Shown here piece after piece: positions 13,743 through 29,706 of a DNA stretch of 64,000 nt. The number at the start of each line of letters is the position of its first letter. Within the stretch, counting starts at the first letter, position 1. Source of the DNA: Bacteroidales bacterium. Its GTDB lineage: Bacteria; Bacteroidota; Bacteroidia; Bacteroidales; UBA4417. The DNA lies in NCBI GenBank assembly GCA_963665485.1, contig OY762227.1, forward strand, positions 876,440 to 940,439. The letters are read 5' to 3'. The notes below the pieces were generated by a model. It worked only from the letters and a program-made list of their open reading frames with translations, did not search any database and was not told the DNA's origin. The position numbers and the translations under genes were made by a program.

Positions 13743-13897
13743 ACCAACCGCTACAAACGCTATATGAAATAAGGTTTCATCGGTAATTCAAGCATTCTGC
13801 ATCGCTTAGATATGGTGTAGATGGACAGGAAATTAGCCGACAATCCCTTATTGCATATATTTCCAAACTTTAATCGCTACTAAAAAAATATTGACCT

Positions 13898-14791
13898 ATG
13901 AGAAAGATTATTTTAATGACAATACTTATTGGATTTATTTCATGCAATTCAAAGATTAGTAAAAGAACAAATGTTGCACAGGAGAAAATTGAGGATAACC
14001 AGGAACTTTCTGAAATGTTCAAAAGCGACCAGGCAGATAGAACGAATCATATCGATAGAGTTATATTGCAAAAGAACGATAGCTTAAGAGAAGCAAGAGT
14101 CTATGAATTATTAGATTCAGATAAGGTGCGTACATCATTAGACTATACTAATTCCGCATTGATTTTTCATCATGGAGAAGACTCTGTTGCATATGCTATG
14201 GCTGTAAAACTAATGCGAAAATCTATAGAATTGGATTCAACAAGAAATAAATGGTATCTGGCTGTATTAACTGACAGATATTTATTGAGTATAAATAAAC
14301 CTCAAATTTATGGTACGCATTATAAGAGATTGGATAATAACATTGTTGTGAGAGAAGAACTGGACTCAACAAAAATTACTGACGCTGAAAGAGTAGAATA
14401 TGGTGTGGAAACTTTAGCTGAGCAAAGAGAGAAATTAAAAAATCTGAACCGGAAAAAACTTACAGAATTGCTGGATGAAGGGAAAACCATTGATGAAATA
14501 ATACTAATTGTCAAACAAGGGGAAGGCAAGGAATCTGAATATGATTTACGTGAAAATTGGATTAATAACTTTGGTTATCAACTTCTGAATCAGGGAGACA
14601 AGGAAGAAGCCTTAAAAATATTTAAATTAAATACCGAATTGCATCCAAGTGGTTCTAATGCTTTTGATAGTTACGGAGAGTGTCTTTTAGCATTAGGACA
14701 AAAGGAACAAGCCATTATAGCGTATAAAAAATCTTTAGCATTAAATCCAAAGAATAAAAATGCTGAAAAAATATTATCAGAAATTGAATAA
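13898..14791 (+). CDS. TPR-repeat lipoprotein
   Basis: Lipobox GFISC. The C-terminal TPR module (EEALKIFKLNTELHPSGSNAFDSYGECLLALGQKEQAIIAYKKSL) also occurs in the next gene. Confidence 0.7.
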   Translation: MRKIILMTILIGFISCNSKISKRTNVAQEKIEDNQELSEMFKSDQADRTNHIDRVILQKNDSLREARVYELLDSDKVRTSLDYTNSALIFHHGEDSVAYAMAVKLMRKSIELDSTRNKWYLAVLTDRYLLSINKPQIYGTHYKRLDNNIVVREELDSTKITDAERVEYGVETLAEQREKLKNLNRKKLTELLDEGKTIDEIILIVKQGEGKESEYDLRENWINNFGYQLLNQGDKEEALKIFKLNTELHPSGSNAFDSYGECLLALGQKEQAIIAYKKSLALNPKNKNAEKILSEIE

Positions 14792-14861
14792 CAAAGCATA
14801 ACGTGCGATAAAAAGCTAACAGCTAAAAAAATAAATCTCATTCATTATAATTCAATATACA

Positions 14862-16082
14862 ATGAGAACTTTGAAATTACTGCTAATTATTCTGCTTTTT
14901 GCTGAAACAATATACGCTCAAAACGACGACAATATAGTTATTGCGAAAGGAATCAAAATAAACTCCACTGTATTGGGAGAAGAGCGTATAATTTATGTTT
15001 CTGTTCCCTCTGGTTATGACGATTCGAAGGATTCGTACCAGGTGTTGTATATTCTGGATGGAGTTTCTGAAGCTATTGGCCTTGTAAAATATTTATCAGA
15101 TTATGGAACTTGTCCTCCTTTAATAATAGTTTCTATCGAAGAAGTTAATCCTTCAAGAGACATGTTTCCCTCCAAGCCCAAATATAGCAGGGGAACGCAG
15201 CCAGCAAAACCATGGTACAATAAAAAAGAAGACGACGAACTAAGAGTGTCCCGGCCTGGTGAAAAAATCGGTGAAGCAGATAAATATCTTTCATTTATTG
15301 AGACGGAACTTTTTCCCTTGATCGAAAAGAACTACCGTACAGCCCCTTATCGGATTTGCTGTGGTCACTCGAAAGGTGGTCTTTGCGTAACCCACGCATT
15401 TATTTCACATACAACTATGTTTAACGCCTATATTGCTCTTAATCCTTCTCTTTACTGGGACGATGGTTTGGTTATGAAAACCGCGGAGGAAAAACTCGCA
15501 GGCATGGACTTTAAACACAAACAATTTTATTTTGATATAGGTGGGAACGAAGTACCGTCTACAATTGGCGACGCATTTGATTTTGCCCGGATCATACGGC
15601 AGAATGCATCTTCTGACCTGAGATGGAAACTTGATTTTCTGGCGAATGAAAGCCACAGCAGCGGAACAGCACAAGGAATCATTAATGCACTGAAATTTAT
15701 TTACGAAGACTGGGATTTTAACACCGACAAAATAAAGACAGATGGAATAAGCGCAATCGACAGTTTTTATAAGAATCTTTCAGACAGGTTTGGATACGGG
15801 ATTTCTTACGATGTAAGCCTTTTAAATAAGTATGGATGGGGATATCTGCGTAACGGCCAGTATGAAGAAGCCATTAAAATATTCAAAGAAAATACGTTAA
15901 GGTTCCCTGGTTCACCGGATTCATACAACTATCTGGGGGAGGGATATCTGGCAGCTAAAAATACTGATATGGCAATCAGTAGTTATGAGAAGGCAGTAAA
16001 ACTGGCTGCAAGTTTGAAAGATGATAATAAAGTGGCATTTTTAAAGAGCAGGATTGAAAGCATTAAATCAGGCAAAAAGTAA
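14862..16082 (+). CDS. secreted esterase-family alpha/beta hydrolase with C-terminal TPR module
   Basis: Signal peptide. GHSKGG nucleophile elbow in a putative-esterase-like core. C-terminal TPR module (EEAIKIFKENTLRFPGSPDSYNYLGEGYLA). Confidence 0.78.
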   Translation: MRTLKLLLIILLFAETIYAQNDDNIVIAKGIKINSTVLGEERIIYVSVPSGYDDSKDSYQVLYILDGVSEAIGLVKYLSDYGTCPPLIIVSIEEVNPSRDMFPSKPKYSRGTQPAKPWYNKKEDDELRVSRPGEKIGEADKYLSFIETELFPLIEKNYRTAPYRICCGHSKGGLCVTHAFISHTTMFNAYIALNPSLYWDDGLVMKTAEEKLAGMDFKHKQFYFDIGGNEVPSTIGDAFDFARIIRQNASSDLRWKLDFLANESHSSGTAQGIINALKFIYEDWDFNTDKIKTDGISAIDSFYKNLSDRFGYGISYDVSLLNKYGWGYLRNGQYEEAIKIFKENTLRFPGSPDSYNYLGEGYLAAKNTDMAISSYEKAVKLAASLKDDNKVAFLKSRIESIKSGKK

Positions 16083-16242: not shown

Positions 16243-16863
16243 TTACTTTATCAATTTCAATCCACTCTGCGCCGAGCTATCGTTAGGCCGGAGAATAAGC
16301 GCGTGATTGAACAATACCCTTGCATCTGCTGATTTGCCGGTACTTAGTTTCGACCAGGCAAGCATTATCACCGAATCGTAATCCAACGGATAAAGATTAA
16401 CTACTTTCTCGAAAAGTTTTGTTGCATTAACAAAGTCTTTGCGGTTATAATAAATAACACCCAGCCAGTAATTGGCAATTGTATTCTGGGGATCAATTTT
16501 AAGTATTTCAACATAGTGAGCCTTAACTTTATCCCAGCTTTCGACTGCGCTAAGCGGTTTTACACAACCAAAACGAGCTTCGATGGCATACGGCTTCAGG
16601 CTTATGGATTTTTCGTAATATTTAATTGATTCGGTGTATTGCTTTGCCAGGTAACAAAGCCATCCAAGCCTTATGTTTACAATATAGCTATCAGCTTTAT
16701 AAATCGTTTTCATGGTATTGATAGCTGCCACATAATTGCCGGATTTCTCCGACTCATAGCTTTTAACAAAAGTTGCCTGGGTGGCAGCGGTATTCTGCGC
16801 CATGATGTATCCGAACATGACGGTTAAGATGGCAGTTAGTGAGATTCTTCTTAAAGTTTCCAT
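16243..16863 (-). CDS. secreted TPR-repeat protein
   Basis: 206 aa with a signal peptide and several 34-residue TPR-like repeats. Overlaps the upstream ORF by 13 nt. Confidence 0.78.
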   Translation of the reverse strand: METLRRISLTAILTVMFGYIMAQNTAATQATFVKSYESEKSGNYVAAINTMKTIYKADSYIVNIRLGWLCYLAKQYTESIKYYEKSISLKPYAIEARFGCVKPLSAVESWDKVKAHYVEILKIDPQNTIANYWLGVIYYNRKDFVNATKLFEKVVNLYPLDYDSVIMLAWSKLSTGKSADARVLFNHALILRPNDSSAQSGLKLIK

Positions 16864-17993
16864 ATTAGTCCTCCTAAAAATGATTGCTGAATGTATTGAT
16901 TTGTGGTTTGCTCCACCTGTTTGGTATCGTAAAGGTAATTCCCGTATAAAGTTAGGTTTTTGTTGAGATTCCAGAATAAAGACAATCCGGTTCTGAACAA
17001 AGTAGGATCAATCGAATTATAAATATAAAGCGCGTTGTGATCATTGTAGTTTTGTATGTTACCAATTGTAACGGTTCCTTCGGCCCAAACTGATTTAAAA
17101 ACACGTGCCCCGGCATATTGAGAGAAAATCAGCCGGTTATTTCCTTTTTCAAGCATACCACTAAGGTACGTATTAAAATAAATATTGGATTTCCCCGGCA
17201 AGGTGACTCCGGCAAGTAAGCCAATTTGTTTGAAATCTCCAATATCATACCTGAAAAATGATCCGTTTACACCCAAAACAAACCGGTTTATGTGGGTCGA
17301 AAGTGATCCAAACACAAGGTTTCCGGGATATTTATATCCATCCAGGCTAGTATTCAGGTGATGATATGCCAGAGAAAGAGATGTATGCGAGGTTATGGAC
17401 CAGTTTACTAAGGCAAAATAGTCAGGCTGTTTTATCAGGGTTGTATCAACTGTTTGCTTATAATTTGATGCCGATTGATAGATTGACAGCCGGTAACCAG
17501 TTTGCGTATAAATTCCTGCGCGGTAATAAGTTGGATTTGAACGGGTGCCGCTGTTATTGCTTTTGTAATTGTATTCCAGGTCAATGGAAGCAATTGGATT
17601 GAACGCGTTAATACCAAGCCTGTTCTTAGTCCCGTCTGAAAGTTTTTTTGCATGAACACGCGCATACGCAATGTTGCCGGTATTTAATCCGCAATAATAG
17701 AGATACTCACGGGTGTCGGGATCAAAAACATCAAATTCCAGCGCTTTTTCATACTGTTTCTGCGAAGCGTAATAATCTGCCTTATTAAAATACGCGTACC
17801 CCATTCGTTGCCTCAGTCGTTTGAAATCTATATTCTGTGCCAAAGCCTGTTTCCCTGTTTTAATCAGATTTTCCCAATCACCAGTCAGATAACACTGATA
17901 CGTTATGCTGTCAGCCGAAGCCTGGGTTAGTGTATCCTGCGCTTTTAGTATCACCGGAAATAGGAGCAGGATGGCAATTATGAGTTTATACAT
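16851..17993 (-). CDS. hypothetical outer-membrane beta-barrel protein with N-terminal TPR-like region
   Basis: 380 aa with a signal peptide. The C-terminal two-thirds has alternating beta-strand patterns and ends ...GGLIWKL (OMP-like terminus). Overlaps the upstream gene by 16 nt. Confidence 0.6.
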   Translation of the reverse strand: MYKLIIAILLLFPVILKAQDTLTQASADSITYQCYLTGDWENLIKTGKQALAQNIDFKRLRQRMGYAYFNKADYYASQKQYEKALEFDVFDPDTREYLYYCGLNTGNIAYARVHAKKLSDGTKNRLGINAFNPIASIDLEYNYKSNNSGTRSNPTYYRAGIYTQTGYRLSIYQSASNYKQTVDTTLIKQPDYFALVNWSITSHTSLSLAYHHLNTSLDGYKYPGNLVFGSLSTHINRFVLGVNGSFFRYDIGDFKQIGLLAGVTLPGKSNIYFNTYLSGMLEKGNNRLIFSQYAGARVFKSVWAEGTVTIGNIQNYNDHNALYIYNSIDPTLFRTGLSLFWNLNKNLTLYGNYLYDTKQVEQTTNQYIQQSFLGGLIWKL

Positions 17994-20188
17994 GTAGCTT
18001 TTATTTGAGTTTTATTAGATTGAAAACTGAATTCTTTAATGCAATTATCCTGGACTTTTATTGTGCTGTTGCTTTCGTTGCGGGATTTACCCCAAATGGT
18101 GACATCAATTCCTGATGTCAGTGTGATTGATCCGGTATCGAATATTGTATCGCTTGCTGAAACACCAACAGTATAAACAGCCTTAATATATGTAAAGAAA
18201 GGCGCAATAAAATCATGCATCCAGATGCGTGTTTTTTTATTCCTGATGGTACTGAGAGGCATTACATCCTTAACCGCAACAGCATCAGGGTTCACCAGAA
18301 ACACTTTATAGGCTGAAAGGTAAAAGTAGTAAAGCAGTGATTTCTTATCGCCGTAAAAAGCTGTAAAGTAAAACATGGAACCATCATTTACATAATAGGC
18401 AACCGATTCGGTAGTCTTACTGTAAAGGTATTTGGAGTTAAACGCATCCGTATAAGCATCCCATTTTTCAGTTATTTCAATCCCATTTTCGTTAACAAAA
18501 CTGTACGTGAGGCTTGTATCTGGCATAATATCGAATGCTGTTTTAAGCAAATTATTGGTCGAAATACCTGAAACCAGAGACTTTTCAGTTGGTACACAAA
18601 ATTGCTGGAGTGCTTTTTCTGTTTTCCCGTTCTGATGAAAGTAAGCAATAGGATAATAAATGGTTTTTGCGCCAAGCAGCGGAGTAGTCTGTACCTGGAA
18701 ATGCAGGTGAGGTTCGGGTGAGCGGCCTGAGTTACCACAGGAAGCCAGCAAATCACCTCGTTTTACATATTGTCCTTTCACTACTTTAAACGATCCTCTT
18801 TTCAGGTGTGACATCTGGGTATAAAGTCCGGGTAAATGCCTTATTATAATTGAATTACCCCAATTACTCGATGTATTCACTTTCCCGATCTCGTTATCAT
18901 CAATGGTATCAATTACTTCTTCTACAATGCCATCGGCGGGGGCAAGCACAGGTTTGTTATAACAATAATAGTTCTCGCAAAGCAGTCCGTTGGAACTATA
19001 TGTTTTCATTTTTTCGTCATAGATCATAAAATCGAGGGCTTTGCCCCAATCACCTTTATGGGTATATTCCCCATCGTATCCCTGGGTTACACTCCACTCG
19101 CCCCAGAAAGGCAGGTAAAGCGGAAAATAAAGAAACTGAGCGAGCCGGTCCTGGTTGTTTTTAAAGGTATAGAGGTTTATTTCGGGCGAGTAATATTGAA
19201 TCGGCGTAAGTTTTAATTTAGATGGATACACCCTTAACCTCAGGAAATAAACAAACAAGATCACCACAAATGAAAATGGTAGCGAAAAAACCGGCAACTG
19301 AACAAAGCCAAATAGCCTGGTCATAAACAGCAAAACCAGCGATGTAAGCGGAACCAGTAATACACTCCATAAATACGAATAGCCTGAAGGAATTATGAAA
19401 AAACCTCCGATAGCAATGGCTACCATGATGTAGTTAGCTCCAATATTGTAATACGTGATACTCGCTGCTTCTGAGCCTGAGAACTGGGCAAACACGTAGG
19501 CTGAAAGAAATCCCAGAATTGATAATGAAAATGCAATCCGCGAACTCAGCAGGAGTATTATTGAAATTACTATACCGGCAATGAGATTACTTTGAAAAAA
19601 TATGGAACTCATCGACCGGAGATAAATATCCAGCATTTTGTTAATCGGCAGCGAATCAATGGTTTGAAAAAAGTTGAGCATGGAACTGCCACCAATGGCA
19701 TACACTTCATTCATCCAGTATATGTTACGTTGCGTTAATCCCAGGTTTTCAAATTGTGAGGCGGGAAGAACAATAAACCAGAATGTAATTACAAATGGAA
19801 TACTAAGAAATGGTAAGCCATTCTTACCAAGCCATCCCCCCAAAGTAACCGAAAGTATAAGCGTTAATAATGCGGCAATCAACAACAGACTAAAAAAAAC
19901 ATACCCTGCGTCAAAGAATGTTCCCATTCCCATCCCGGTTAATAAAGCATTGAAACTATAGATCCCGTTTTTAAGCTGAGCCTTATCCAATCCCATTGAG
20001 TTAGCCAGAAGTACAGTGACCACAACAGCAATTAAACCGCTTAACCCGGCATAAAAGTTGAAAAATGTAACCAACAACAGAACAGATGCCAGTAACTTAT
20101 TGTTGAAAAAGAAGATGGCAGAATAACTGTTCAGGATGGCCGGCAGGATAGTATTGCGGAAAGTATCAATATATTGGCGGGTGGGCAT
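17978..20188 (-). CDS. urea-transporter (UT)-like polytopic membrane domain fused to an M23 metallopeptidase domain
   Basis: 736 aa. The N-terminal ~340 aa is polytopic and opens with a UT-family-like block (LNSYSAIFFFNNKLLA...GLSGLIAVV). The central region carries an M23/LytM signature (GNSGRSPEPHLHFQV, upstream HKGDWGKALDF). Confidence 0.78.
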   Translation of the reverse strand: MPTRQYIDTFRNTILPAILNSYSAIFFFNNKLLASVLLLVTFFNFYAGLSGLIAVVVTVLLANSMGLDKAQLKNGIYSFNALLTGMGMGTFFDAGYVFFSLLLIAALLTLILSVTLGGWLGKNGLPFLSIPFVITFWFIVLPASQFENLGLTQRNIYWMNEVYAIGGSSMLNFFQTIDSLPINKMLDIYLRSMSSIFFQSNLIAGIVISIILLLSSRIAFSLSILGFLSAYVFAQFSGSEAASITYYNIGANYIMVAIAIGGFFIIPSGYSYLWSVLLVPLTSLVLLFMTRLFGFVQLPVFSLPFSFVVILFVYFLRLRVYPSKLKLTPIQYYSPEINLYTFKNNQDRLAQFLYFPLYLPFWGEWSVTQGYDGEYTHKGDWGKALDFMIYDEKMKTYSSNGLLCENYYCYNKPVLAPADGIVEEVIDTIDDNEIGKVNTSSNWGNSIIIRHLPGLYTQMSHLKRGSFKVVKGQYVKRGDLLASCGNSGRSPEPHLHFQVQTTPLLGAKTIYYPIAYFHQNGKTEKALQQFCVPTEKSLVSGISTNNLLKTAFDIMPDTSLTYSFVNENGIEITEKWDAYTDAFNSKYLYSKTTESVAYYVNDGSMFYFTAFYGDKKSLLYYFYLSAYKVFLVNPDAVAVKDVMPLSTIRNKKTRIWMHDFIAPFFTYIKAVYTVGVSASDTIFDTGSITLTSGIDVTIWGKSRNESNSTIKVQDNCIKEFSFQSNKTQIKATCINS

Positions 20189-20226
20189 ATCGGGAGTGTT
20201 AAAGGAAAGTTCGTTACAGGTTAATA

Positions 20227-20279
20227 GTTTCTGGTTTCAAGTTTCTGGTTTCAAGTTTCTGGTTTCAAGTTTCTGGTTT
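20227..20279. repeat. 14-bp tandem repeat, about 3.8 copies (GTTTCTGGTTTCAA)
   Basis: Three perfect units (20227-20268) plus 11 matching bases. It sits 39 nt upstream of the UT-M23 start codon. The unit length is not a multiple of 3 and the repeat is intergenic. Confidence 0.95.
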
Positions 20280-20357
20280 TCTGAGTTCAGGATTCGAATG
20301 TTTTAGTTCACTATTTTCTACTTTCCCATTTTTAAAACCATACTTCATTTCTTCCTT

Positions 20358-20588
20358 TTACTGCCGGTACATTCTGAAAATTTCTTTCCTGGTCGGGCAG
20401 GTACAAATGAATGAATCTCCGAAAGACATTTTGTAATAGCAAGGTGACTTTTCAATGTTCTCAATGAAATGTACATTATGGTTGATGCAACTTTCCACTT
20501 TACAATAAACATGTTTATCGCTGTTCAGGCAATCAAAATTCTTGTGACATTTAAAAGTACCTGCAACTATCCGCTTGTCGATTTCCAT
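20358..20588 (-). CDS. small Cys-rich protein (76 aa), unknown function
   Basis: Seven Cys (C14, C20, C29, C34, C50, C62, C64), including a CTC pair. No signal peptide. Lies between the decarboxylase and the UT-M23 gene. Confidence 0.6.
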   Translation of the reverse strand: MEIDKRIVAGTFKCHKNFDCLNSDKHVYCKVESCINHNVHFIENIEKSPCYYKMSFGDSFICTCPTRKEIFRMYRQ

Positions 20589-20704
20589 TTGAAATGGTTT
20601 AATTCATCAGTTTATAAGCACTACATTAATCATTTACAATTGCCATCAACTTTTTGTTGCGGGGTAAGAGACTGAGACAGTGAAAATAACCATTTTAACT
20701 GAAG

Positions 20705-22051
20705 TTACCTCAGATATTCCGGAATCTGCTCATTCGAAAGCATATTCTCAAGTGTTTCGGCTTTCCGTATCACGTGAGTATTGTTTTCATTGTCAATTAA
20801 AACAATATTGGGCCGCAAGGTTATAAACTGCATCCATTGAGTCATATTGTAAGCGCCTACTTTATGCACAACCACGTGATTTCCCTTTTCGAGTAAAGGC
20901 AAAGTTATGCTTTCGCGAATGATGTCGATATTCATGCAAAGCGGACCGTACAAAACCATTTCTTCGGTATGCTGGCCGTAGGATTGAGTTGTGCTGATCT
21001 GGTGATCGTACCAGAAAGCCGTGAACAAAGTGTTAACGCCAAAATCGAGTATGGTAGCTCTCCGACCGTCCGAAAGCCGTTTGTTTGCCAAAACAGTTCC
21101 CAGTAAAAAACCTGCATCATCAATAAGAACGCGACCCGATTCAAGAATCAGTAAAGGCAGGTCTTCCTGTTTGAAACCATAGCCAAGAATTACATCTGTA
21201 ATTGCGTCGGCAAACTGGTCGATGGAAGGAACTGTATCGGAACCAGGCAGATAAGCACCTTTCAGCGTATTTGTTGAAGGAAAACCTCCGCCAAGGTCAA
21301 TATATTGAAGGACCTTATTGAATTTCTCTTTCACGCTCCATGTTAATTCGCACATTTTTGTGGCTGCCGTAGAATATGCCGATGGCGAAAGCATGAAAGT
21401 TCCGATATGGCAATGAAGCCCGACCAGGTCGAGATTTTCGGAATTGATAATACGGGTAATGGCTGTCCATGCCTGACCGTTTTCGAAGTTAAAACCAAAC
21501 CTATCCCATTTTGGATAAATGCCGGTATCCATATTTACGCGGATGGCTACGCGGGGTTTCAGGTTATTTTCTTCACTCAGTCTGATAAGCGAATAAAGTT
21601 CGTCGAAATGATCGATATGAATAAGCGAATTGTTGCGTGCGGCGGTAACAAGTTGTTCATCAGTTTTGTCGGGACCATTGAAAATGATTTTGTTTCCCGG
21701 GACTCCGTTGTTAAGCGCTTTCTCGTATTCAAATCCGGAAACCACTTCGGCCCATGAGCCTTCCTGGTGAAATATCCGGCAAACGGCATCCATATAATTG
21801 GTTTTATACGACCACGCAAACTGAACTTTTGGATAACGGGTTTTAAAAATCCGAGTCGCATTCTGATAATTCCGCCGGATTTGTTTCTCCGAAAGCACAA
21901 ATAACGGTGAACCATATTCATTAATCAGGCTTTTTACCGGTATGCTTTCGATGTGGGTTACAGGAATATTTTCAGTGCGGGTACCGAATTTGTTCATAAG
22001 CCCGGTACTCATTTTCTGAATTATTGGTCTTTCGTATCTTAGTTTATCCAT
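20705..22051 (-). CDS. fold-type III PLP-dependent decarboxylase (Orn/DAP/Arg decarboxylase family)
   Basis: Lys motif WSYKTNY, HCHIGT, DLGGGF, ESGR and GPLC (active-site Cys) blocks follow the LysA/ODC layout. It has an extra ~35-aa N-terminal extension. Confidence 0.88.
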   Translation of the reverse strand: MDKLRYERPIIQKMSTGLMNKFGTRTENIPVTHIESIPVKSLINEYGSPLFVLSEKQIRRNYQNATRIFKTRYPKVQFAWSYKTNYMDAVCRIFHQEGSWAEVVSGFEYEKALNNGVPGNKIIFNGPDKTDEQLVTAARNNSLIHIDHFDELYSLIRLSEENNLKPRVAIRVNMDTGIYPKWDRFGFNFENGQAWTAITRIINSENLDLVGLHCHIGTFMLSPSAYSTAATKMCELTWSVKEKFNKVLQYIDLGGGFPSTNTLKGAYLPGSDTVPSIDQFADAITDVILGYGFKQEDLPLLILESGRVLIDDAGFLLGTVLANKRLSDGRRATILDFGVNTLFTAFWYDHQISTTQSYGQHTEEMVLYGPLCMNIDIIRESITLPLLEKGNHVVVHKVGAYNMTQWMQFITLRPNIVLIDNENNTHVIRKAETLENMLSNEQIPEYLR

Positions 22052-22152
22052 GGATTTGTAAAATTATTAATGTTGAATGAGCTTCACCTGCGGCAAATTA
22101 CTCATTTAATTAAATATGAGTGAATATGAAGCTGATGATGATCCGGATGTTT

Positions 22153-22209
22153 TCAAAAAAAGTAAAATCAGGGTGCATTTATACTATCTGTTTGTTTGCA
22201 CCCTGATTT
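22153..22209 (-). terminator. intrinsic terminator after the DUF2202 gene
   Basis: A 12-bp stem (aatcagggtgca / tgcaccctgatt) is followed on the minus strand by a T-run (plus-strand aaaaaaa at 22154-22160). Confidence 0.72.
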
Positions 22210-22215
22210 GAAATC

Positions 22216-22965
22216 TTAATTTGTACAAACACCACTTCCGGTTTCGTTAGTATTTGCAATTATCTCATTAAAATACTCCAGGCTAATATACTGTGGTGTA
22301 TAAGTTGCAGCTTTTACCTTTAATTGTCTGTTGAAAGCCCGCATGTGATTTCGTGATCCTCTTTCGAGATTTCCAAATACAAACAGTATGTCCTGGTTAT
22401 CAATATCGGTAGTAATGTGTGTGTGTAAATCATAAATATCAAGGTCTTCGATGGTTGCTCCGACAGTAAAAGCCGAAATCAATGAAGTGCTTCCTTTGGC
22501 CACCAGGCTGTTATAGATTGCCTGAAGGGTTGTATTTACAAATACACCGCCTGTATGATTCACAGCAGGATCTGAAAGGCCATATTTAAGCAACAATGTT
22601 TCAACAGCCTTTGCATGTTGTGTTTCGCTTTTCGAAATATTATTGAAAACCGGTACATTGTAAATGGAGAATAACAACACATACACATCCTTCGCAAGGA
22701 GTTCTTCCTCGCGCATAGTGGTGAGAGCCTCAATTTCGGCTGCCGACAATGCTTCAACCGGTAAGGCATTGATACAACTATCAACCCATATGGCATCGGC
22801 ACGGCCTACGGTTTTTTCAATAATAGCATCATGTTGATCGGCAACATATTCTTCGGCTGTGTCCTTCGAACAACTACCTAACTGCATTGATCCGATCATT
22901 ACTGATACAAGGAACAATATTCTTAATCCTTTATTTTTCATCTTATTAAGTTTTATTTTTTGCAT
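22216..22965 (-). CDS. DUF2202 ferritin-like lipoprotein
   Basis: Lipobox QLGSC. LSAAEIEALTTMREEELLAKDVY...SETQHAKAVETLLLKYG matches the DUF2202 pattern. Confidence 0.82.
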   Translation of the reverse strand: MQKIKLNKMKNKGLRILFLVSVMIGSMQLGSCSKDTAEEYVADQHDAIIEKTVGRADAIWVDSCINALPVEALSAAEIEALTTMREEELLAKDVYVLLFSIYNVPVFNNISKSETQHAKAVETLLLKYGLSDPAVNHTGGVFVNTTLQAIYNSLVAKGSTSLISAFTVGATIEDLDIYDLHTHITTDIDNQDILFVFGNLERGSRNHMRAFNRQLKVKAATYTPQYISLEYFNEIIANTNETGSGVCTN

Positions 22966-23269
22966 TTGTAATTTGCATGCTTCGATTCCGAGTTTGCTTT
23001 AAACTATGAGCGCATGTTAAACCCATATTCCAATTCATTTTATAATTACTAATCTTTTGTATTAATCCTGGTTGATTCCATGTTGACTTTTATTAACTGA
23101 AAAGTGCCGGCAGGAATCATCGGTTCACCATAGGTGTGTTCACGGGAAGCCACATTTACTGCAATTTTTAGTACAATGAGTATACATTCTAATTTAGTTT
23201 TTATATGATAAATTATCTATTAAAAGATATTCAGCCTATTAGTTTTCAGCTTCAGGATTTTATAAATGA

Positions 23270-24346
23270 CTAGAGTTCTCCTGTTCCCGATATTTTCTGG
23301 AATTCACTCACATCAGTGATCAGATCCCATGCATAGCGTATAAACATCTTACCCACTTTGTATTCGGTGAAAGGCTCAACTTCCTGACCCATAGCCATTT
23401 TCACCAATGAGGCCGGCTGGTTTTGTCCGGCTGCCGCTGTTAAATATATCCAGGCAGGAAACCGGGGATTAACTTCCATGATATAAGGCTTCCCATCTTC
23501 CGACTGCATAATTTCGAGTTCACAGCCACCACGCCATTTGGTTACTTTAATAAACTTACGGGCGAGTTCTACATAGGATGAATCATCAATCGTAATCCCT
23601 GACCATGCTTTACCTTTATCAGTTATGTAAAGTTTTCGCATTGGTATTACGCTGATTGCTTTTCCTTCGCCATCACCCAAAGCGGCAACATTGATTTCAG
23701 TACCGTTGATAAACTCCTGTACAATAATAGGCAGCCCCCATTTTGCCTGTAATTTATAAAAAGCTTTCTGGGCCTGCTCCAAAGTATTTACAATAATAGC
23801 ATCGTAAAATTTCCCTTTTATTACCATTGGGTAGCCTATTTCTTCAGCAGTTTCTTCGAGGTCTTTAGCCTGATGGATAATTTTATCGGCAGGCACAAGT
23901 AAGCCATTCTTTTTGCCGAATTCGTACAGCTTAACCTTGTCGCGGGCTTCAAACTGATCCAGATCAGGCAGAAATGTGTGTATCCCGGTTTCGGCCAGTT
24001 TATCTCTTAGTTTGATAAAATTAAAAAGTTCCGCATCAAAATTCGGGATGATCAGATCAATTTTTTCAATCTTGTGAATATACATTAACCTGGCCATGAG
24101 TGTATCAGTTCCGGCTGATGGATAAGGAATCTGATACGTTTTATCAACCAGGTCGTGCATGTAGGCGCCAGGTTCAAGCGATTCGTACGCCAGCCCGATA
24201 ATGCGCAAATTAAAATCGTGGCAATCGCGTATGGCTCGTATTACGGCCACACCTGGTCCGGGGCTGTCGATAGCATTGAGCCCGGTAACAGCGATTACGA
24301 GTTGTTTATTGTTGAAATTGTTAGTATCTGTGGCTTGTGCTTTCAT
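23270..24346 (-). CDS. ATP-grasp domain ligase
   Basis: 358 aa. YPMVIKGKF..., IVQEFINGTE and MEVNPRFPAW blocks are typical of the ATP-grasp fold (biotin-carboxylase/PurK-like arrangement). Confidence 0.88.
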   Translation of the reverse strand: MKAQATDTNNFNNKQLVIAVTGLNAIDSPGPGVAVIRAIRDCHDFNLRIIGLAYESLEPGAYMHDLVDKTYQIPYPSAGTDTLMARLMYIHKIEKIDLIIPNFDAELFNFIKLRDKLAETGIHTFLPDLDQFEARDKVKLYEFGKKNGLLVPADKIIHQAKDLEETAEEIGYPMVIKGKFYDAIIVNTLEQAQKAFYKLQAKWGLPIIVQEFINGTEINVAALGDGEGKAISVIPMRKLYITDKGKAWSGITIDDSSYVELARKFIKVTKWRGGCELEIMQSEDGKPYIMEVNPRFPAWIYLTAAAGQNQPASLVKMAMGQEVEPFTEYKVGKMFIRYAWDLITDVSEFQKISGTGEL

Positions 24347-24497
24347 CAGGATTGTTTTGTATTTCAGGTTATTGACCTGCCAGGTGATTTGTGATTATTT
24401 TATGTGGTAATTGCATAAGGTGGTTTTTAGTTTTTTATCAATTAATTTTTTCACCACCCGGGCTGTATTAATTGCTGATTCTACTATTATGCTTATT

Positions 24498-25298
24498 TCA
24501 TTTGCTGACTGCAAGTTTAAAAGATTTTGATTTATATGTATTTGACTCAATTCTATAAATATATATCCCGGCAGGTAGTTCACTTGTTTTCACCAGGATT
24601 GAATTGAATGTATGGTCAATAGTATACGACTTTACCATTTCCCCGCTCATAGCATAGAGTTTCAATTCCGCCTGCCTGACATTGGATGGCAATGAATAGG
24701 GAATTGTGACTTCGTTGCTGGCAGGGTTTGGATATGCGCTGCTCAGCGAACTTTTAAGTTCCTCCGGGGATCCTGTCGTTAATGGGTTTAACTTGCCCGG
24801 GATGGAATAAACCATTGTGTTTACAGTTTCCGGGAATACTGAAAAGTCATAAATCCACATAAATAATTTTGAACCGGTTTCTGCCGGATAGATGTATGAG
24901 TAACCGGCGTAAGGCATACTTAACAATATTGTTCCGTTTTCATTTACGATTCGGGTATCGTAAGTATAGTATTTAAGAGTTGTATTGTAATTACACGAAA
25001 CATAAAGCATCTCAATCAAATTATCGGTATTGAAAAGATCTTCAGTAACAAACTGTATATCGCAGAGGTAATAATTGGCCGGAATGCTAAGATTTAAGGT
25101 CTTCCAAATTGAATGATCATTATTATAAAGTCGGCACTGCGTGTTAGCTACATCCATTACATAATATTTGTATCCAGCTAATGGAAGGTGAATATAAGCT
25201 GCAGAAACTCCTGTGTAAGTATGCTCATAGGAGATTTGAGCCGAGGAGCGAAATGCAAAAAAAACAAAAACCGAAATAAAAAATGCAATTTGTTTCAT
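24498..25298 (-). CDS. secreted protein with T9SS type-A C-terminal sorting domain
   Basis: Signal peptide. The C-terminal ~80 aa (AYPNPASNEVTIPYSL...AGIYIYRIESNTYKSKSFKLAVSK) matches the Por_Secre_tail pattern. Confidence 0.85.
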   Translation of the reverse strand: MKQIAFFISVFVFFAFRSSAQISYEHTYTGVSAAYIHLPLAGYKYYVMDVANTQCRLYNNDHSIWKTLNLSIPANYYLCDIQFVTEDLFNTDNLIEMLYVSCNYNTTLKYYTYDTRIVNENGTILLSMPYAGYSYIYPAETGSKLFMWIYDFSVFPETVNTMVYSIPGKLNPLTTGSPEELKSSLSSAYPNPASNEVTIPYSLPSNVRQAELKLYAMSGEMVKSYTIDHTFNSILVKTSELPAGIYIYRIESNTYKSKSFKLAVSK

Positions 25299-25446
25299 AG
25301 CAAAGGGATTTAATGTAATAAGTAATCGTATCGGGATTAGTTTTTATTTATTGCTTTGAAAGCCTGATTTTACCAGGCTATATTTGATATCAGGATTTTT
25401 CTTTCATTTTTAAAGAAATCGATGGTCATCTTCCATCCTGAATAAC

Positions 25447-25686
25447 CTATTCAAGAATAGATGCTTCCTTTAACTGAGACACAAAGTCATCAAGATCTTT
25501 TTCGAACTGCACCTCATCCACATCATACTTTTCACACATATGGGCTTTAATTGCGCTTACATTATTATCTTCTTTCAGCAAATTGATAATTTCAGCTCCA
25601 ATGGGGTTTGTTGAAAATGAATCGCCTGTACCTGGATTAAAAATAAATCCTTCTTCGCTGCTTGCTATATTTTTTCGGAGTTTCAT
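25447..25686 (-). CDS. PqqD-family (RRE-type peptide chaperone) protein
   Basis: 79 aa. GFIFNPGTGDSFSTNPIGAEIINLLKED...AIKAHMCEKYDVDEVQFEKDLDDFVSQLKEASIL follows the PqqD pattern (beta strands followed by a helical bundle). Confidence 0.78.
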   Translation of the reverse strand: MKLRKNIASSEEGFIFNPGTGDSFSTNPIGAEIINLLKEDNNVSAIKAHMCEKYDVDEVQFEKDLDDFVSQLKEASILE

Positions 25687-26277: not shown

Positions 26278-27321
26278 ATGAAACGACTTCTGCTACCCGA
26301 TCTGCTTAAAGGTCTCGCTGCATTCTTTATGGTTCAGATTCATATTACTGAACTTTTTATCGATTCCGCTGGCAGGGAAAGCGCGGTTGGCAAGACCACG
26401 TTGTTTCTGGGAGGACCTTTCGCAGCTGTAGTTTTTATGATCGTGATGGGATATTTTATTGCTAAAAACAAAGGATCATCAACACAACACTTGCTGAGGG
26501 GAGTTAAAATTTTTATGCTCGGATTTTTTCTGAATATAGGTCTGAATTTTCATCTGCTTTTCAAAATAAAATTTGACAACTGGTCTTATAATCCTCTGGA
26601 ATATATATTTGGTGTTGATATTTTATACCTTGCGGGGATGAGTATCATTATACTGGCTTGCCTTAAATTATTTAAAAATGGCCAGGAATGGGCTTCTTTA
26701 ATTTTACTGCTTGCAGTTATAGTGCTAACGGGTTTTATGAATGAAAAACTAATGGTCACGAACCATTTCTTTGTGTTGCCATTTATTGCCGGTGCTTATT
26801 CGTGGTCATATTTCCCTTTGTTCCCCTGGCTGGCATATCCATTAACTGGTTTTATTTTTGCTCAGCACCAGGAGAAAATCATCCTCTTTTTCAACAAGCA
26901 GAAGGTTATTTCATTTATTCTGGTTGCAGCAATTGCAGCACTGGTCCTAATATTTTACAAAAAGGGCATAAATACTACTATTGATCTGCCATTATATTAT
27001 CATCACACTGCCGGATATGCACTTTGGGCTTTGGGATTAACCCTCCTCTGGACACTTTTCCTTCAGCTTATATTGAAACTGTTTCCCGATACTAAGGTTG
27101 GGAATTTCTTATGCTGGATCGGTAGAAACATAACACTTTTCTATGTGATCCAATGGCTGATTATCGGGAACATTGCGACAGCTATTTATCAGAGCAAACC
27201 TATTAACAGCTATATTTATTGGTTTGGAGGCATTTTTTCAGCAACGGTTTTACTCGTGTTTTTGATTGAAAAACTAAAACTAATGTTACTCCGGAAATCC
27301 CAAAAGACAGCTCCCGAATAA
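26278..27321 (+). CDS. DUF1624 / heparan-alpha-glucosaminide N-acetyltransferase-like membrane acyltransferase
   Basis: 347 aa, polytopic. The N-terminal DLLKGLAAFFMVQIH block is typical of the family. Confidence 0.75.
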   Translation: MKRLLLPDLLKGLAAFFMVQIHITELFIDSAGRESAVGKTTLFLGGPFAAVVFMIVMGYFIAKNKGSSTQHLLRGVKIFMLGFFLNIGLNFHLLFKIKFDNWSYNPLEYIFGVDILYLAGMSIIILACLKLFKNGQEWASLILLLAVIVLTGFMNEKLMVTNHFFVLPFIAGAYSWSYFPLFPWLAYPLTGFIFAQHQEKIILFFNKQKVISFILVAAIAALVLIFYKKGINTTIDLPLYYHHTAGYALWALGLTLLWTLFLQLILKLFPDTKVGNFLCWIGRNITLFYVIQWLIIGNIATAIYQSKPINSYIYWFGGIFSATVLLVFLIEKLKLMLLRKSQKTAPE

Positions 27322-27362: not shown

Positions 27363-28082
27363 TTATACAATAAAAGTCCTGTCCACAAAAGCCTGAAAGT
27401 TTTCTTTATACTGTTCACCAACAGGGATGTAAACATTCCGGTCGAAAACTATACGGTTCCGTTCTATCACCTTTATACGTTCAAGGTTAACGATAAATGA
27501 TCGGTGAATGCGCATAAATTTGTCTTTCGGAAGCTGTTCCTCCATCACTTTCAACCGGATAAGTGTTGTAACCGGTTCATCATTCACAAGATGAATCTGA
27601 ATATATTCATTCGAACTTTCTATGTATTTGATTTCAGAAAAGAAGATTCGTATCATTTTGTATTCCGATTTTACAAACAGGCTGTCATGAGTAGTTTGAA
27701 TTAATTCTTCTTGTTTCCGGTTCAATTCAAACCATGTTTTCGCTTTGTTTGCCGCCTTTAGAAAACTGGCATAGCTGATTGGTTTCAATATATAATCCAG
27801 GGCATCTACCTTAAACCCTTCAATCGCATACTCGCTATATGCTGTTGTAAAAATAATCTGTGGCTTTTGTGTAAGCGATTTTACAAAGTCCATGCCGTTC
27901 AGGTCAGGCATGTTTATGTCAACGAACATCAGGTCAACCGCGTTGTTTGCCAGGAATTCCATAGCATCAAAAGCATTATGACATAATGCTAAAACTTCAA
28001 GAAACGGTGTTTTCCCGATATAAGAGCTTATTTGCTTTAGCGCAAGCGGCTCATCGTCAATTGCTATGCATTTTATTTTCAT
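27363..28082 (-). CDS. LytTR-family response regulator
   Basis: Receiver domain (IAIDDEPLAL...DLMFVDINMPD) plus a C-terminal LytTR domain (HRSFIVN). Confidence 0.93.
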   Translation of the reverse strand: MKIKCIAIDDEPLALKQISSYIGKTPFLEVLALCHNAFDAMEFLANNAVDLMFVDINMPDLNGMDFVKSLTQKPQIIFTTAYSEYAIEGFKVDALDYILKPISYASFLKAANKAKTWFELNRKQEELIQTTHDSLFVKSEYKMIRIFFSEIKYIESSNEYIQIHLVNDEPVTTLIRLKVMEEQLPKDKFMRIHRSFIVNLERIKVIERNRIVFDRNVYIPVGEQYKENFQAFVDRTFIV

Positions 28083-29295
28083 ACACTGGTATAGTTAATT
28101 CTACTTCATATTCTTTTTCGCTTTCAAGAATATTGAGGATATAATCACTCTTAAACAGAAGTTCCAGGCTTTTTTTAATATTAGTCAAACCAATACCGGA
28201 ATAGCTTTTTTCATCACTTTCCTTAGTCTTGAATTTGCTGTTCCGGATATTACAATTCAGCCTATCATCCTTTTGTTCTATTTTGAACATAACAAAGGAT
28301 TCAGCCTGGTAACTTATGCCATGTTTAAAGGCATTTTCAAGAAACGAAATAAAAAGCATAGGAGGTATCTCAATGTCCCGGATATCTTCAGGAACCTGAA
28401 GACTAATAGATACATTATCCGGGAATCGTAATTTCATAAGCGTTATATAGCTTTCAATAAAAGCAATCTCTTTTTTCAGTGTAGTTTGTCCGTGAGCCGT
28501 ATCATACAGCAAATAGCGCATCATAACAGATAACTGAATAATAGTGTTTTTAGCGTCTTCTGCATTAATATCGATGAGAGCATGAATATTATTCAGTGTA
28601 TTCATAAAAAAATGAGGACTTATCTGGTGCCGCAATAAAGCCAGTTCTGTTTTAAGTTGCTCTTTCTCCAGATCTTTCCGTTTGCTCTCCTCGTTAAGCC
28701 ATTGTGATACTAATTTAAAAGCTGTTCCGACTCCAACAACCAGAATGGAAAGTAGAAGATTGTCAACAAAAATCATAAATAATGATTTCGATGCTGGTTC
28801 AGTTACAGGATTGTATCCCATTGGTGGCGGCATTCCGGGCCCCAATTCCATAGGTGGCATTCCAGGTCCCAGGTTCATTGGCGGCATCGCTAGTGGCTGA
28901 GGTGGTAATATAAACATCTTAACTAAGATTGTAGCCCCAATAACCAGAAGTATTGTTATAAGTGTTATTCCAACATAAGACCGGTATTTCTTTTGAAAAA
29001 GGAATTTTGGAACAAGCCATAAGGTATTCAATACAAAAATGAACAAAAACGAGAACATGCTTGCCCATTCCCCGAATACTTTAATCCAGTTTATTGTATT
29101 GTTAATCCGCTGACTAAAAAAGGGAACGGAAAATACAGCCATCCAGATTACAATAAAAACAAAGAATTCAATTATTCGTATGTTAAATATTTTAGTTTTC
29201 ATAATTTCAATTTCACACAACCTGACGCATTTACAAAGGTATGTTTGACAAAGCTCAATAACAAAAAATATCAGTATAATGCCAAAAGAGTTCAA
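28057..29295 (-). CDS. LytS/YehU-type sensor histidine kinase
   Basis: His-kinase block LRHQISPHFFMNTLNNIHALI and an HATPase region (GIGLTNIKKSLELLF). The true start is more likely the MKTK Met at 29202. Contains a Pro/Met/Gly tandem repeat linker. Confidence 0.88.
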   Translation of the reverse strand: MNSFGIILIFFVIELCQTYLCKCVRLCEIEIMKTKIFNIRIIEFFVFIVIWMAVFSVPFFSQRINNTINWIKVFGEWASMFSFLFIFVLNTLWLVPKFLFQKKYRSYVGITLITILLVIGATILVKMFILPPQPLAMPPMNLGPGMPPMELGPGMPPPMGYNPVTEPASKSLFMIFVDNLLLSILVVGVGTAFKLVSQWLNEESKRKDLEKEQLKTELALLRHQISPHFFMNTLNNIHALIDINAEDAKNTIIQLSVMMRYLLYDTAHGQTTLKKEIAFIESYITLMKLRFPDNVSISLQVPEDIRDIEIPPMLFISFLENAFKHGISYQAESFVMFKIEQKDDRLNCNIRNSKFKTKESDEKSYSGIGLTNIKKSLELLFKSDYILNILESEKEYEVELTIPVYENKMHSN

Positions 29296-29608: not shown

Positions 29609-29632
29609 ATGATTTATATTTCATTCAAAAAG

Positions 29633-29706
29633 TGGAGCGTATGGGAGTCGAACCCATGACCTTCAGACTGCCAGTCTGACACTCTAGCCAACTGAGCTAA
29701 CGCCCC
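29633..29706 (-). tRNA. tRNA-Ala (anticodon GGC)
   Basis: Hand-folded cloverleaf GGGGCGT/ACGCTCC acceptor with the G3:U70 Ala identity pair. Anticodon loop CTGGCAG, T-arm ATGGG-TTCGACT-CCCAT, discriminator A. CCA is not encoded. Confidence 0.93.

Follow-up and report, generated by a model that had tools for sequence, protein, structure and literature searches.

A conserved six-gene core at a Bacteroidales locus

The window analysed here is a 64,000-nucleotide stretch of DNA from a Bacteroidales bacterium (GenBank assembly GCA_963665485.1, contig OY762227.1, positions 876,440 to 940,439), and our subject is a locus at positions 16243-25686 in which a PqqD-like protein lies beside an ATP-grasp ligase, a decarboxylase and genes for membrane and envelope proteins. 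An earlier note, written from the sequence alone, had described nine open reading frames (ORFs) there, all on the minus strand; 9/9 are present as described, and Pfam and NCBIfam confirm all the domain calls. The GC content of the locus is not unusual. Six of the genes form the core that concerns us most. In transcription order, they encode a 79-aa PqqD-like protein, a RiPP (peptide made by the ribosome and then modified post-translationally) recognition element (RRE) resembling the B1 proteins of lasso peptide pathways (25447-25686; PF05402, 55 bits); a 358-aa ATP-grasp ligase similar to carbamoyl-phosphate synthase (CPS; 23270-24346; ATPgrasp_Ter / ATP-grasp_3); a 448-aa fold-III pyridoxal phosphate (PLP) decarboxylase assigned to the FigC/BtrK clade (20705-22051; PF02784 and PF00278); a fusion of a urea-transporter (UT) domain with an M23 metallopeptidase domain (17978-20188; 175 and 59 bits, respectively, in one protein); a 380-aa outer-membrane protein (16851-17993); and a 206-aa secreted tetratricopeptide repeat (TPR) protein with a signal-peptide-like N-terminus (16243-16863; TPR_2, TPR_1 and TPR_19). 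The last three genes do overlap as had been reported, UT-M23 with the 380-aa gene by 16 nt and the latter with the TPR gene by 13 nt.

We scanned one genome per species for related loci, which gave a close set of 54 loci (genomes) from Bacteroidales (Paludibacter, Prolixibacteraceae, Mariniphaga, Tangfeifania, Lentimicrobiaceae and Rikenellaceae) and seven Pedobacter/Sphingobacteriaceae. An exhaustive wider search among 50%-identity representatives yielded 236 ATP-grasp clusters at E <= 1e-30; the contexts of these ATP-grasps, together with 80 metagenomic loci fetched with a double-ATP-grasp profile, make up a distant set. Presence is expressed as present/testable, where a testable locus is one with enough DNA to show the partner. 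The six core genes are syntenic: in the close set, PqqD was found in 50/51 loci, the decarboxylase in 52/53, UT-M23 in 42/43, the barrel protein in 35/36 and the TPR protein in 33/33, and in the distant metagenome set PqqD was found in 72/73, the decarboxylase in 72/72, a UT fusion in 59/61 and a TPR protein in 49/52. The predicted co-occurrence of the gene set thus holds for these six genes and fails for the remaining three (encoding a sorted secreted protein, a DUF2202 lipoprotein and a 76-aa Cys-rich protein), which are variable insertions described below.

Altogether, the gene set is known from well over a hundred bacterial genomes. Because synteny extends over more than 120 loci, and because natural fusions join PqqD to the ATP-grasp (P0432) and the ATP-grasp to the decarboxylase (P0412), the comparison argues that PqqD, ATP-grasp and decarboxylase belong together and are coupled to UT-M23, the outer-membrane barrel and the TPR protein. 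The co-occurrence is far beyond chance and we found no description of the gene set in the literature, in agreement with the suggestion that the locus is an undescribed, functionally linked unit. The ATP-grasp and the UT-M23 fusion each have thousands of homologues in library searches. The top 120 ATP-grasp homologue clusters are 78-93% identical to the window's protein, with orthologues sharing 78-95% identity across Bacteroidales and 61-65% with Pedobacter. Between Bacteroidales and Pedobacter the decarboxylase is 70% and the ATP-grasp 63% identical, which indicates strong constraint on the system. In public databases the proteins are named "PqqD family protein", "carbamoyl-phosphate synthase large subunit", "diaminopimelate decarboxylase", "urea transporter" and "hypothetical protein".

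The loci fall into two architectures. Type A, to which the window belongs, consists of PqqD, ATP-grasp, decarboxylase and UT joined to M23, frequently with a protein resembling the barrel, plus a secreted TPR protein of ~205 aa, which in most loci has ~200-230 aa and follows UT-M23. Type A loci range in GC content from 0.31 to 0.73. The system is not specific to Bacteroidota and occurs across several bacterial phyla. In type B, a large TPR protein whose start mostly resembles a signal peptide accompanies PqqD, two ATP-grasp modules (a tandem double protein of ~710 aa, or a pair), the decarboxylase and a UT domain fused to a CobB-like sirtuin, which scores 191-216 bits against CobB-type deacylase models. 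A GCN5-related N-acetyltransferase (GNAT) domain stands beside the sirtuin in 3 of about 21 type B loci. Examples of type B are L060, L064 (8366-15217), L067-L092, L127, L130 and L131; the UT-sirtuin fusions appear to be undescribed. A further arrangement was seen in L061-L063 (e.g. L061:1-17750), where an 871-aa ATP-grasp-decarboxylase fusion occurs with a separate PqqD, a giant TPR protein of >1900 aa, a TonB_C-like protein, a HEAT-repeat protein, a 637-aa protein and a hybrid sensor kinase. An anti-phage defence function was considered and ruled out on the lack of PADLOC matches for any core protein.

A lasso-type leader motif on the decarboxylase

RREs are thought to serve for presenting ribosomal precursor peptides. 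The 79-aa protein has the PqqD fold of an RRE, and its profile match bears out the family to which it had been assigned. Its best NCBIfam match is the lasso PqqD chaperone, and its best PDB match is TbiB1 (5v1u), to which it aligns end to end. The pocket residues are kept among non-redundant members: N27 in 121/124, D64 in 116/124, F68 in 98/124 and L72 in 116/124. N27 and D64-x3-F68-x3-L72 correspond to N33/D70/F74/M78 of LppB, which grip its YxxP leader (PMC13381572); discrete lasso RREs, or B1 proteins, recognise the leader motif [Y/W]xxPx[L/V/I/A/F] (PMC10368454, PMC6784204). The idea that PqqD is a LysW-like carrier ending in Glu was rejected, since its C-terminus is variable (ILE, LLDL, LLEE) and no Lys or Glu is universal.

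Small ORFs near the core were clustered all against all, in 58 close and in 87 distant loci, and none proved to be conserved beyond genus level or near-identical genomes; the Pedobacter operon has no room for a precursor gene. A cis-encoded precursor peptide is ruled out by two independent clusterings of this kind, covering >130 loci. No class-defining RiPP tailoring enzyme (radical SAM, YcaO, lasso cyclase or LanM) was found among the Pfam and NCBIfam matches of the locus. No locus has the lasso B2 transglutaminase-like leader peptidase or the Asn-synthetase-like cyclase C; in their place stand M23 or sirtuin domains and the ATP-grasp. Likewise, there is no graspetide maturase model (MdnB/MdnC-type) among the listed NCBIfam and PDB matches, and no graspetide precursor. 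Of the features that define lasso clusters, a B1-type RRE and a cognate [Y/W]xxPx[L/V/I] motif are both present, but the motif is located on the N-terminus of the decarboxylase. The system belongs to none of the known families that we considered.

The motif lies in a leader-like tail formed by decarboxylase residues 1-23 (21983-22051, minus strand), which we recognised by motif conservation and codon pattern. In the window it reads MDKLR-Y6-ER-P9-I-I11-QKMSTGLMN-K21-F-G23, and the consensus across the family is [Y/W/F]xxPx[L/I]-x9-K. The tail is missing from FigC and from diaminopimelate decarboxylase (DAPDC), whose alignments to the protein begin at residue 36/41. Y..P.[LIVMF] is present in the tails of 49/49 close orthologues and, when an F or W in the first position or the YEPMxL form of some type B members is allowed, the motif is found in all tails but one; the background frequency is 1.7% of random 48-residue windows. 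A Lys follows at +15 (±1) from the aromatic residue in 95/96 non-redundant tails. The tail is translated: variation is purely in third codon positions from an ATG that lies five codons before the Tyr, and upstream of this ATG conservation collapses and in-frame stops appear. Public start calls for the decarboxylase differ, giving lengths of 435, 440, 448, 453 and 456 aa within one 90% cluster; the 435-aa calls start at Met14 and clip the YERPII motif. All named members of that cluster are labelled "diaminopimelate decarboxylase". In the ATP-grasp-decarboxylase fusion the motif is kept (YVRPSI) within the inter-domain linker, and a separate PqqD is still present.

The residues around the conserved Lys track the enzyme that is fused to the UT domain. 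K-F-G follows the motif in about 60/62 M23-type systems and is limited to them; sirtuin-type tails have K-[H/Y/Q]-x, with Gly in 0/20. In lasso numbering the invariant Lys occupies position -2, beside the point at which a peptide presented by an RRE reaches the partner enzyme. Some type A systems form a subgroup with W-type tails (WxKPx[L/I]; L100, L110, L114, L118, L119, L124, L126, L132, L143), and this Y/W split mirrors that of lasso leaders. The PqqD proteins of W-type loci differ at positions 38 and 66 and have a shorter C-terminus; covariation of tail and PqqD at 66, 38 and the C-terminus was nevertheless discounted as evidence, because the ten W-type loci are probably one lineage. Two other candidates were rejected. 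YYSPEI in the linker of UT-M23, considered as a further RRE site, occurs in only 5/34 type A and 0/12 type B proteins against a background of 8%; in most type A proteins this linker (residues 326-340) carries a conserved (Q)xxSPExN(L)Y, which is no general YxxPxL site. For a lasso-like macrolactam on the new N-terminus left by cleavage at K-F|G, the acidic residues at +5/+7 are conserved in close orthologues only and not in type A loci of the distant set.

From the match of pocket and motif, we consider it likely that PqqD binds the decarboxylase tail. There is no precursor peptide gene because, on this account, the probable ligand of the RRE is the decarboxylase's own N-terminal tail. The location of an RRE leader motif on the decarboxylase itself, and not on a separate peptide, is a wiring undescribed so far. 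The earlier note had overlooked this tail, which is the key feature of the locus.

Specificity of the decarboxylase

The closest solved structure to the decarboxylase is that of the N-citrylornithine decarboxylase FigC/FslC (7kh2, 7.5e-61), followed by the best DAPDC (5.6e-44) and BtrK (1.8e-22). The catalytic residues K83, H215, GGG, E304/R307 and C372 are invariant. We mapped the specificity residues by alignment and with the aid of the FigC paper (PMC7857480). The Arg that contacts the distal carboxylate in DAPDC (Arg343 of MjDAPDC) is replaced by Thr344, and the acidic residue after the catalytic Cys by Met373, both as in FigC; the citrate binders of FigC, His357 and Arg387, correspond to Ile375 and Gln405. 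T344, M373, I375 and Q405 are invariant in 49 close orthologues and conserved in types A and B; T344 and M373 are invariant in 69 distant sequences as well. Scores on the lysA equivalog TIGR01048 (223.6, cutoff 297.9) and on the FslC equivalog NF041039 (232, cutoff 500) both miss the cutoff. Hence, with these specificity residues replaced, the protein is neither a housekeeping lysA, which the earlier note had named as a refuting case, nor a citryl-amino-acid decarboxylase. The DAPDC-related clade that holds FigC, SbnH, AcsE, MccE and BtrK has non-DAPDC members that decarboxylate conjugated or tethered amino acids (PMC7857480). Alignment and structure matches place the window's decarboxylase in this clade, nearest FigC, and its specificity residues are of the conjugate type.

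Affinities of the ATP-grasp ligase

Profile searches place the ligase not with LysX, RimK or graspetide enzymes but closest to CPS-like proteins and CarB modules. Its NCBIfam match is PRK12767 (CPS-like), with all matches below cutoff. The family profile matches best the uncharacterised CPS-like protein 2pn1 (2e-22) and residues 649-876 of CarB (2e-18), then PylC, Ddl and BL00235 at about 1e-3 to 1e-4; LysX and RimK are absent from its matches, and the LysX_arch model gives 19 bits (cutoff 276). The purK equivalog score is 21 (cutoff 318). No locus encodes a partner expected of a CPS or biotin carboxylase, that is, an amidotransferase subunit or a biotin carboxyl carrier protein, and equivalog scores are far below cutoff; nor does any locus protein contain a PP-binding (phosphopantetheinyl carrier) domain. 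Orphan ATP-grasp paralogues were found at L050:4372-5421 (64% identical to the window's protein) and L065:10001-11056 (44%) with the partner genes absent; one of the two adjoins a class I/II aminotransferase gene.

Membrane and envelope proteins

The UT-fold domain of the fusion (residues 17-315; 19244-20140; PF03253, 175 bits) has ten transmembrane segments, aligns over its full length to dvUT and to mammalian UTs (UT-B), and has invariant LPxxSxPF boxes, as the UT fold requires. Urea is recognised in this family by a ladder Q(Pa)-T(5a)-T(5b)-Q(Pb) (PMC11589576). In the window the Q-T-T-Q ladder reads A24-S129-S302-S195, and the family as a whole, type A as well as type B, has it in degenerate form. 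The score on the Yut equivalog TIGR03441 is 112, with a cutoff of 274.6. The domain thus has the UT fold, but by its sequence it is probably not urea-specific.

Downstream of the UT domain lie the M23 metallopeptidase domain (residues ~360-505; 18674-19111; PF01551, 59 bits) and a C-terminal beta-rich domain (residues ~520-736; 17981-18631; AlphaFold2 (AF2) predicted local distance difference test (pLDDT) 65-87). All 65/65 non-redundant sequences keep H377, D386, H461, H494 and H496 of the M23 domain. The UT domain is not followed by a transmembrane segment, the linker is K/R-rich and positively charged, and in type B the position of M23, 20-35 residues past the last helix, is occupied by a sirtuin with or without a GNAT, domains that depend on NAD and acetyl-CoA. 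For these reasons the M23 and beta domains probably face the cytoplasm, and a periplasmic wall hydrolase is not what the topology and the sirtuin/GNAT fusions indicate. In the AF2 model of UT-M23 the C-terminal beta domain is the only reasonably confident part; Foldseek with this model gave weak hints of M23 and, for the C-terminal domain, a weak likeness to LolA/RseB/FABP-like open barrels (E about 0.01). The fusions of a UT-fold channel to a cytoplasmic M23 peptidase, as we read it, or to a sirtuin are unprecedented.

The 380-aa protein matches no family in Pfam or NCBIfam, although its N-terminal TPR is confirmed by profile. Its AF2 model (pLDDT 92.9) comprises a signal peptide, three TPRs (residues 24-126) and a 14-strand barrel (residues 132-379), and Foldseek retrieved OmpG (2iwv, TM-score 0.66), PelBC (9h80), BcsC (9b8a) and AlgE, which confirms the outer-membrane barrel that had been recognised from the letters. 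A glycosyltransferase or polymer synthase, which an exopolysaccharide export system should include, is present in none of the loci.

Lineage-specific insertions and neighbouring genes

Three genes of the locus lie outside the core. The first encodes a protein with a PF18962 tail for sorting by the type IX secretion system (T9SS; 24498-25298) and is restricted to the window's sub-lineage (L001, L005-8, L010, L013). The second, a DUF2202 (ferritin-like) lipoprotein gene (22216-22965; PF09968, 173 bits; 22165-22965 with its terminator), occurs in 8 loci at two different positions, between ATP-grasp and decarboxylase in L005-7 and, in four Paludibacter loci (L026, L029, L033, L035), upstream of PqqD. 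Insertion at two sites in two lineages hints at a loose functional association, perhaps involving metal or redox. The terminator ascribed to this gene is indeed present at 22165-22209: a perfect 13-bp hairpin (22165-22177 / 22197-22209) with a 19-nt loop, followed by a T7 run. This hairpin would break transcription between ATP-grasp and decarboxylase in the window's lineage, so that the genes beyond it may depend on read-through or on a promoter of their own.

The third, a 76-aa ORF with seven Cys (20358-20588), sits between the decarboxylase and UT-M23. It is probably a real gene. It has no match in Pfam, NCBIfam or PADLOC, and homologues exist in 2 of about 58 related loci, L005 (14959-15186, 86%) and L024 (2506-2733, 64%); it is not the LysW-like carrier that it had been proposed to be. 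None of the three genes recurs in the distant loci. They are lineage-specific insertions outside the pathway, to which the T9SS and DUF2202 genes had also been assigned.

Upstream of PqqD, on the minus strand, lie genes for a LytS-type histidine kinase (28057-29295; orthologues in L001-L004 carry PF06580) and a LytTR response regulator (27363-28082; orthologues in L001-L004 carry Response_reg and LytTR). The regulator is adjacent in 31/48 and the kinase in 30/42 testable close loci. In Pedobacter the two genes lie within one tight eight-gene operon with intergenic gaps of 4-90 nt; the pair is not conserved across distant loci. Between the two-component genes and PqqD, the window carries an Acyl_transf_3 / HGSNAT-like membrane acyltransferase gene (26278-27321, plus strand) confined to its sub-lineage (L001, L005-L009). 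A tRNA-Ala(GGC) gene (29632-29706, minus strand) is located directly upstream of the kinase gene, and an ORF at 29767-30321 (plus strand) has, from sequence reading alone, the two HxT motifs (HLTLKF, HLTIGR) typical of LigT-like 2H phosphoesterases. On the other side, three consecutive secreted proteins combining hydrolase or DUF6624 modules with TPR repeats are encoded at 12498-16082 (plus strand); their esterase (PF00756) and DUF6624 calls come from the identical contig L059, and these genes flank the system on the opposite strand without being conserved with it. Rfam found no RNA elements on the locus other than one tRNA, and counts from a promoter/terminator consensus scan were not above those of shuffled sequence.

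A model for the pathway and its rivals

We propose that the locus encodes a pathway in which enzymes organised by an RRE ligate and decarboxylate a tethered amino acid, with the amidase-channel fusion and the envelope proteins acting downstream, a reading to which we assign a probability of about 0.4. The cytoplasmic core would be an enzyme pair, ATP-grasp ligase and PLP decarboxylase, organised by the RRE: the lasso-B1-type PqqD would grip the decarboxylase tail (Y6-E-R-P9-I-I11 ... K21-F-G23) and so dock the decarboxylase to the ligase. The ligase would make an amide-linked amino-acid conjugate whose alpha-amino and alpha-carboxyl groups remain free, and the decarboxylase would turn this conjugate into an amine, following the logic of FigA/FigC and BtrJ/BtrK. 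We lean towards the view that the ATP-grasp forms the conjugate that the decarboxylase acts on. The proposal of tethered ligation and decarboxylation made in the earlier note is thus retained, as the place of the decarboxylase in the FigC/BtrK clade fits it, and is separated from the carrier role given there to the 76-aa protein.

The later steps are more tentative. The tail Lys, on a flexible arm of 14-22 residues, would be the most likely attachment point and a built-in carrier, although we find it somewhat doubtful that this residue is indeed the point of attachment. The cytoplasmic M23 domain might cut at or next to the tail Lys (K-F-G), releasing or resetting the conjugate, with a CobB-like acyl-lysine deacylase, with or without a GNAT, in M23's place in the sister systems; an action of either domain on the Lys is possible, with the odds somewhat against it. 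More speculatively, the UT-fold pore, with the secreted TPR protein and the TPR-barrel outer-membrane protein, could let the product pass the envelope, and in Bacteroidota the LytS/LytTR pair could control the operon. In its strictest form, which we regard as unlikely, the model has the decarboxylase as its own carrier: the RRE would feed Lys21 to the ATP-grasp, the isopeptide-loaded amino acid would be decarboxylated on the enzyme's own swinging arm, and M23 (at K-F|G) or the sirtuin would unload it at the mouth of the UT pore.

Several observations weigh against this proposal. The closest characterised relatives of the ATP-grasp, CarB and the biotin carboxylases, activate bicarbonate or carbamate and not amino-acid side chains, and two paralogues (L050, L065) do without the partners. 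The ATP-grasp-decarboxylase fusion variant has Arg for the tail Lys and no UT fusion. UT pores are narrow and normally exclude charged solutes. A sirtuin passes the acyl group to ADP-ribose, which fits resetting or regulation better than release. The UT-M23 model has a pLDDT of only 50, the sidedness of M23 is taken from topology rules and homology with the sirtuin fusions, and the weak LolA-like likeness of the C-terminal domain is more usual for the periplasm. Finally, beyond co-occurrence and motif matching, the mechanistic steps are ones that we infer.

The main rival keeps the docking of the RRE to the tail, which would merely assemble ATP-grasp and decarboxylase into a metabolon with a free small molecule as its product. 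A soluble N-omega-acyl or N-carbamoyl amino acid would be decarboxylated to a mono-acyl or ureido diamine in a rhizoferrin-like route, with the ATP-grasp in place of a synthetase of the nonribosomal peptide synthetase (NRPS)-independent siderophore (NIS) type; the second ATP-grasp of type B would carry out a second ligation, exit would be via the UT pore, and the tail Lys and the M23 or sirtuin domain would be accessory. Much could be accounted for in this way: the neutral pocket of the FigC-like decarboxylase, with Q405, I375 and W347 for R387, H357 and T330; the CPS/biotin-carboxylase-like character of the ATP-grasp, whose tandem double form resembles CarB; a UT fold suggestive of a small polar amide or urea-like solute; the ferritin-like DUF2202 accessory in some loci and the TonB_C-like neighbour in one variant; and the fusion variant that lacks the tail Lys. 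However, such a metabolon leaves unexplained why Lys is found at +15 in 95/96 tails and why K-F-G and K-H/Y track M23 and sirtuin, respectively. The urea ladder of the pore is degenerate, a conserved uptake receptor or typical exporter is absent, and a protein-lysine deacylase and an endopeptidase would be odd tailoring enzymes for a small amine. We consider this reading, too, rather unlikely. It is a still weaker candidate explanation, and to us an improbable one, that the tail is a regulatory handle by which the decarboxylase is controlled, held by PqqD and switched by acylation and deacylation of the Lys in type B (GNAT and CobB-like sirtuin, possibly the ATP-grasp) or by an M23 cut at K-F|G in type A, with the UT-fold domain sensing a small solute at the membrane. 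Regulation of an enzyme through one lysine is the classical role of CobB/GNAT pairs (Acs/Pat/CobB). That precedent, the correlation of tail sequence with the fused enzyme, a degenerate pore motif for which urea transport is not required, and the adjacent two-component systems would all be in keeping with a handle; yet GNAT occurs in only 3 of about 21 type B loci, the secreted TPR and barrel partners are left unexplained, and a constrained ATP-grasp (78-95% identity) would have no clear catalytic role.

The remaining alternatives fare worse. Import and catabolism of an amide or peptide-like nutrient, e.g. a cell-wall fragment, through barrel, TPR protein and UT channel, followed by hydrolysis by the cytoplasmic M23 or sirtuin and processing of the pieces by ATP-grasp and decarboxylase, draws on the bidirectionality of UT channels, the porin-like nature of an OmpG-like barrel and the cell-wall associations of M23, DAPDC-like and Ddl-like folds. 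We judge it quite improbable: it gives the RRE-tail pairing no role, a sirtuin is unsuited to wall peptides, the decarboxylase is without DAP-binding residues and an ATP-consuming ligase is unusual for catabolism. Less probable again, and by our estimate very improbable, is a classical RiPP cluster with its precursor gene at another site in the genome. The RRE is genuine, and peptide-scaffolded small-molecule pathways such as that of fosfazinomycin exist (PMC13622209), but conserved small ORFs are absent in >130 loci, the decarboxylase already bears a cognate leader motif in every locus, and a class-defining RiPP enzyme is absent. Public annotation carries exactly the names that a chance neighbourhood of housekeeping genes would have (lysA, a CPS/purK-like ligase, a urea transporter and a wall hydrolase). 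That reading retains almost no probability and is refuted by the equivalog, residue and synteny tests: lysA (223.6 < 297.9), yut (112 < 274.6) and purK (21 < 318) all miss their cutoffs, DAP-binding residues are absent, and synteny and gene fusions span phyla.

Relation to known systems

The proposed RRE-guided ligation and decarboxylation shares parts with several known systems. As with the lasso B1 RREs (TbiB1/TbiA, FusB1, LppB), the RRE is a stand-alone PqqD fold of ~80 aa with Asn at the end of beta3 and D-x3-F-x3-L on alpha3, its partner carries [Y/W]xxPx[L/I] with a functional site about 15 residues on, and it is accompanied by an ATP-dependent amide-forming enzyme and a peptidase. Here, however, a 448-aa PLP enzyme, rather than a short precursor, carries the motif at its N-terminus, there is no core peptide, position -2 is Lys where lasso leaders have Thr, and M23 or sirtuin and ATP-grasp replace the transglutaminase-like B2 and the Asn-synthetase-like cyclase. 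In the FigA/FigC (FslA/FslC) rhizoferrin pathway, too, ligation comes first and the conjugated amino acid is then decarboxylated, and FigC, like the window's enzyme, has Thr where DAPDC has its Arg and a Met behind the catalytic Cys; an ATP-grasp here replaces the NIS synthetase, and siderophore transport genes are absent. BtrI/BtrJ/BtrK, for the butirosin side chain, and the LysW/LysX amino-group carrier systems follow the same logic, in which an ATP-grasp loads a carrier, the tethered amino acid is modified (decarboxylated, by BtrK) and a hydrolase releases it. BtrK is more distant from the window's decarboxylase than FigC is, and here there is no acyl carrier protein (ACP) and no LysW, the candidate carrier being the Lys of the decarboxylase tail.

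RiPP recognition machinery is re-used for small-molecule assembly (PMC13622209). In borosins (OphMA) and scaffold-peptide pathways (pearlins, fosfazinomycin), as proposed here, modification affects a stretch that belongs to, or is built on, a ribosomal polypeptide from which a peptidase frees a small product; no homologous enzymes are shared, and here the tag is on a downstream tailoring enzyme and modification of the tail is only putative. The envelope proteins recall PelB, BcsC, PgaA and AlgK/AlgE in their combination of periplasmic TPRs with an outer-membrane barrel, a separate secreted TPR protein and translational coupling to an inner-membrane component, but differ from them in having a 14-strand OmpG-like barrel in place of 16-18 strands, three TPRs only and no glycosyltransferase or synthase. 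With urea transporters (UT/SLC14, dvUT, Yut), a family of trimeric channels, the channel domain shares the full-length fold and both LPxx(S/T)xPF boxes, and differs by its A-S-S-S ladder and its fusion to a cytoplasmic M23 or sirtuin domain.

Implications

The system probably makes an amine-bearing metabolite or a protein modification that is handed to the cell envelope. This hypothesis is directly testable, since cultured Pedobacter species carry the system. If an RRE does have its cognate leader motif on a tailoring enzyme, the RRE concept is widened, and RRE-Finder-type genome mining would flag these loci as orphan RiPP clusters. The genes are misannotated throughout as diaminopimelate decarboxylase, carbamoyl-phosphate synthase and urea transporter, and for environmental Bacteroidota this distorts reconstructed lysine, arginine and urea metabolism. 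Should the decarboxylase prove to be its own carrier, the system would represent a new, precursor-less class of RRE-dependent biosynthesis, distinct from RiPPs, from NRPS pathways and from those tethered to LysW or an ACP.

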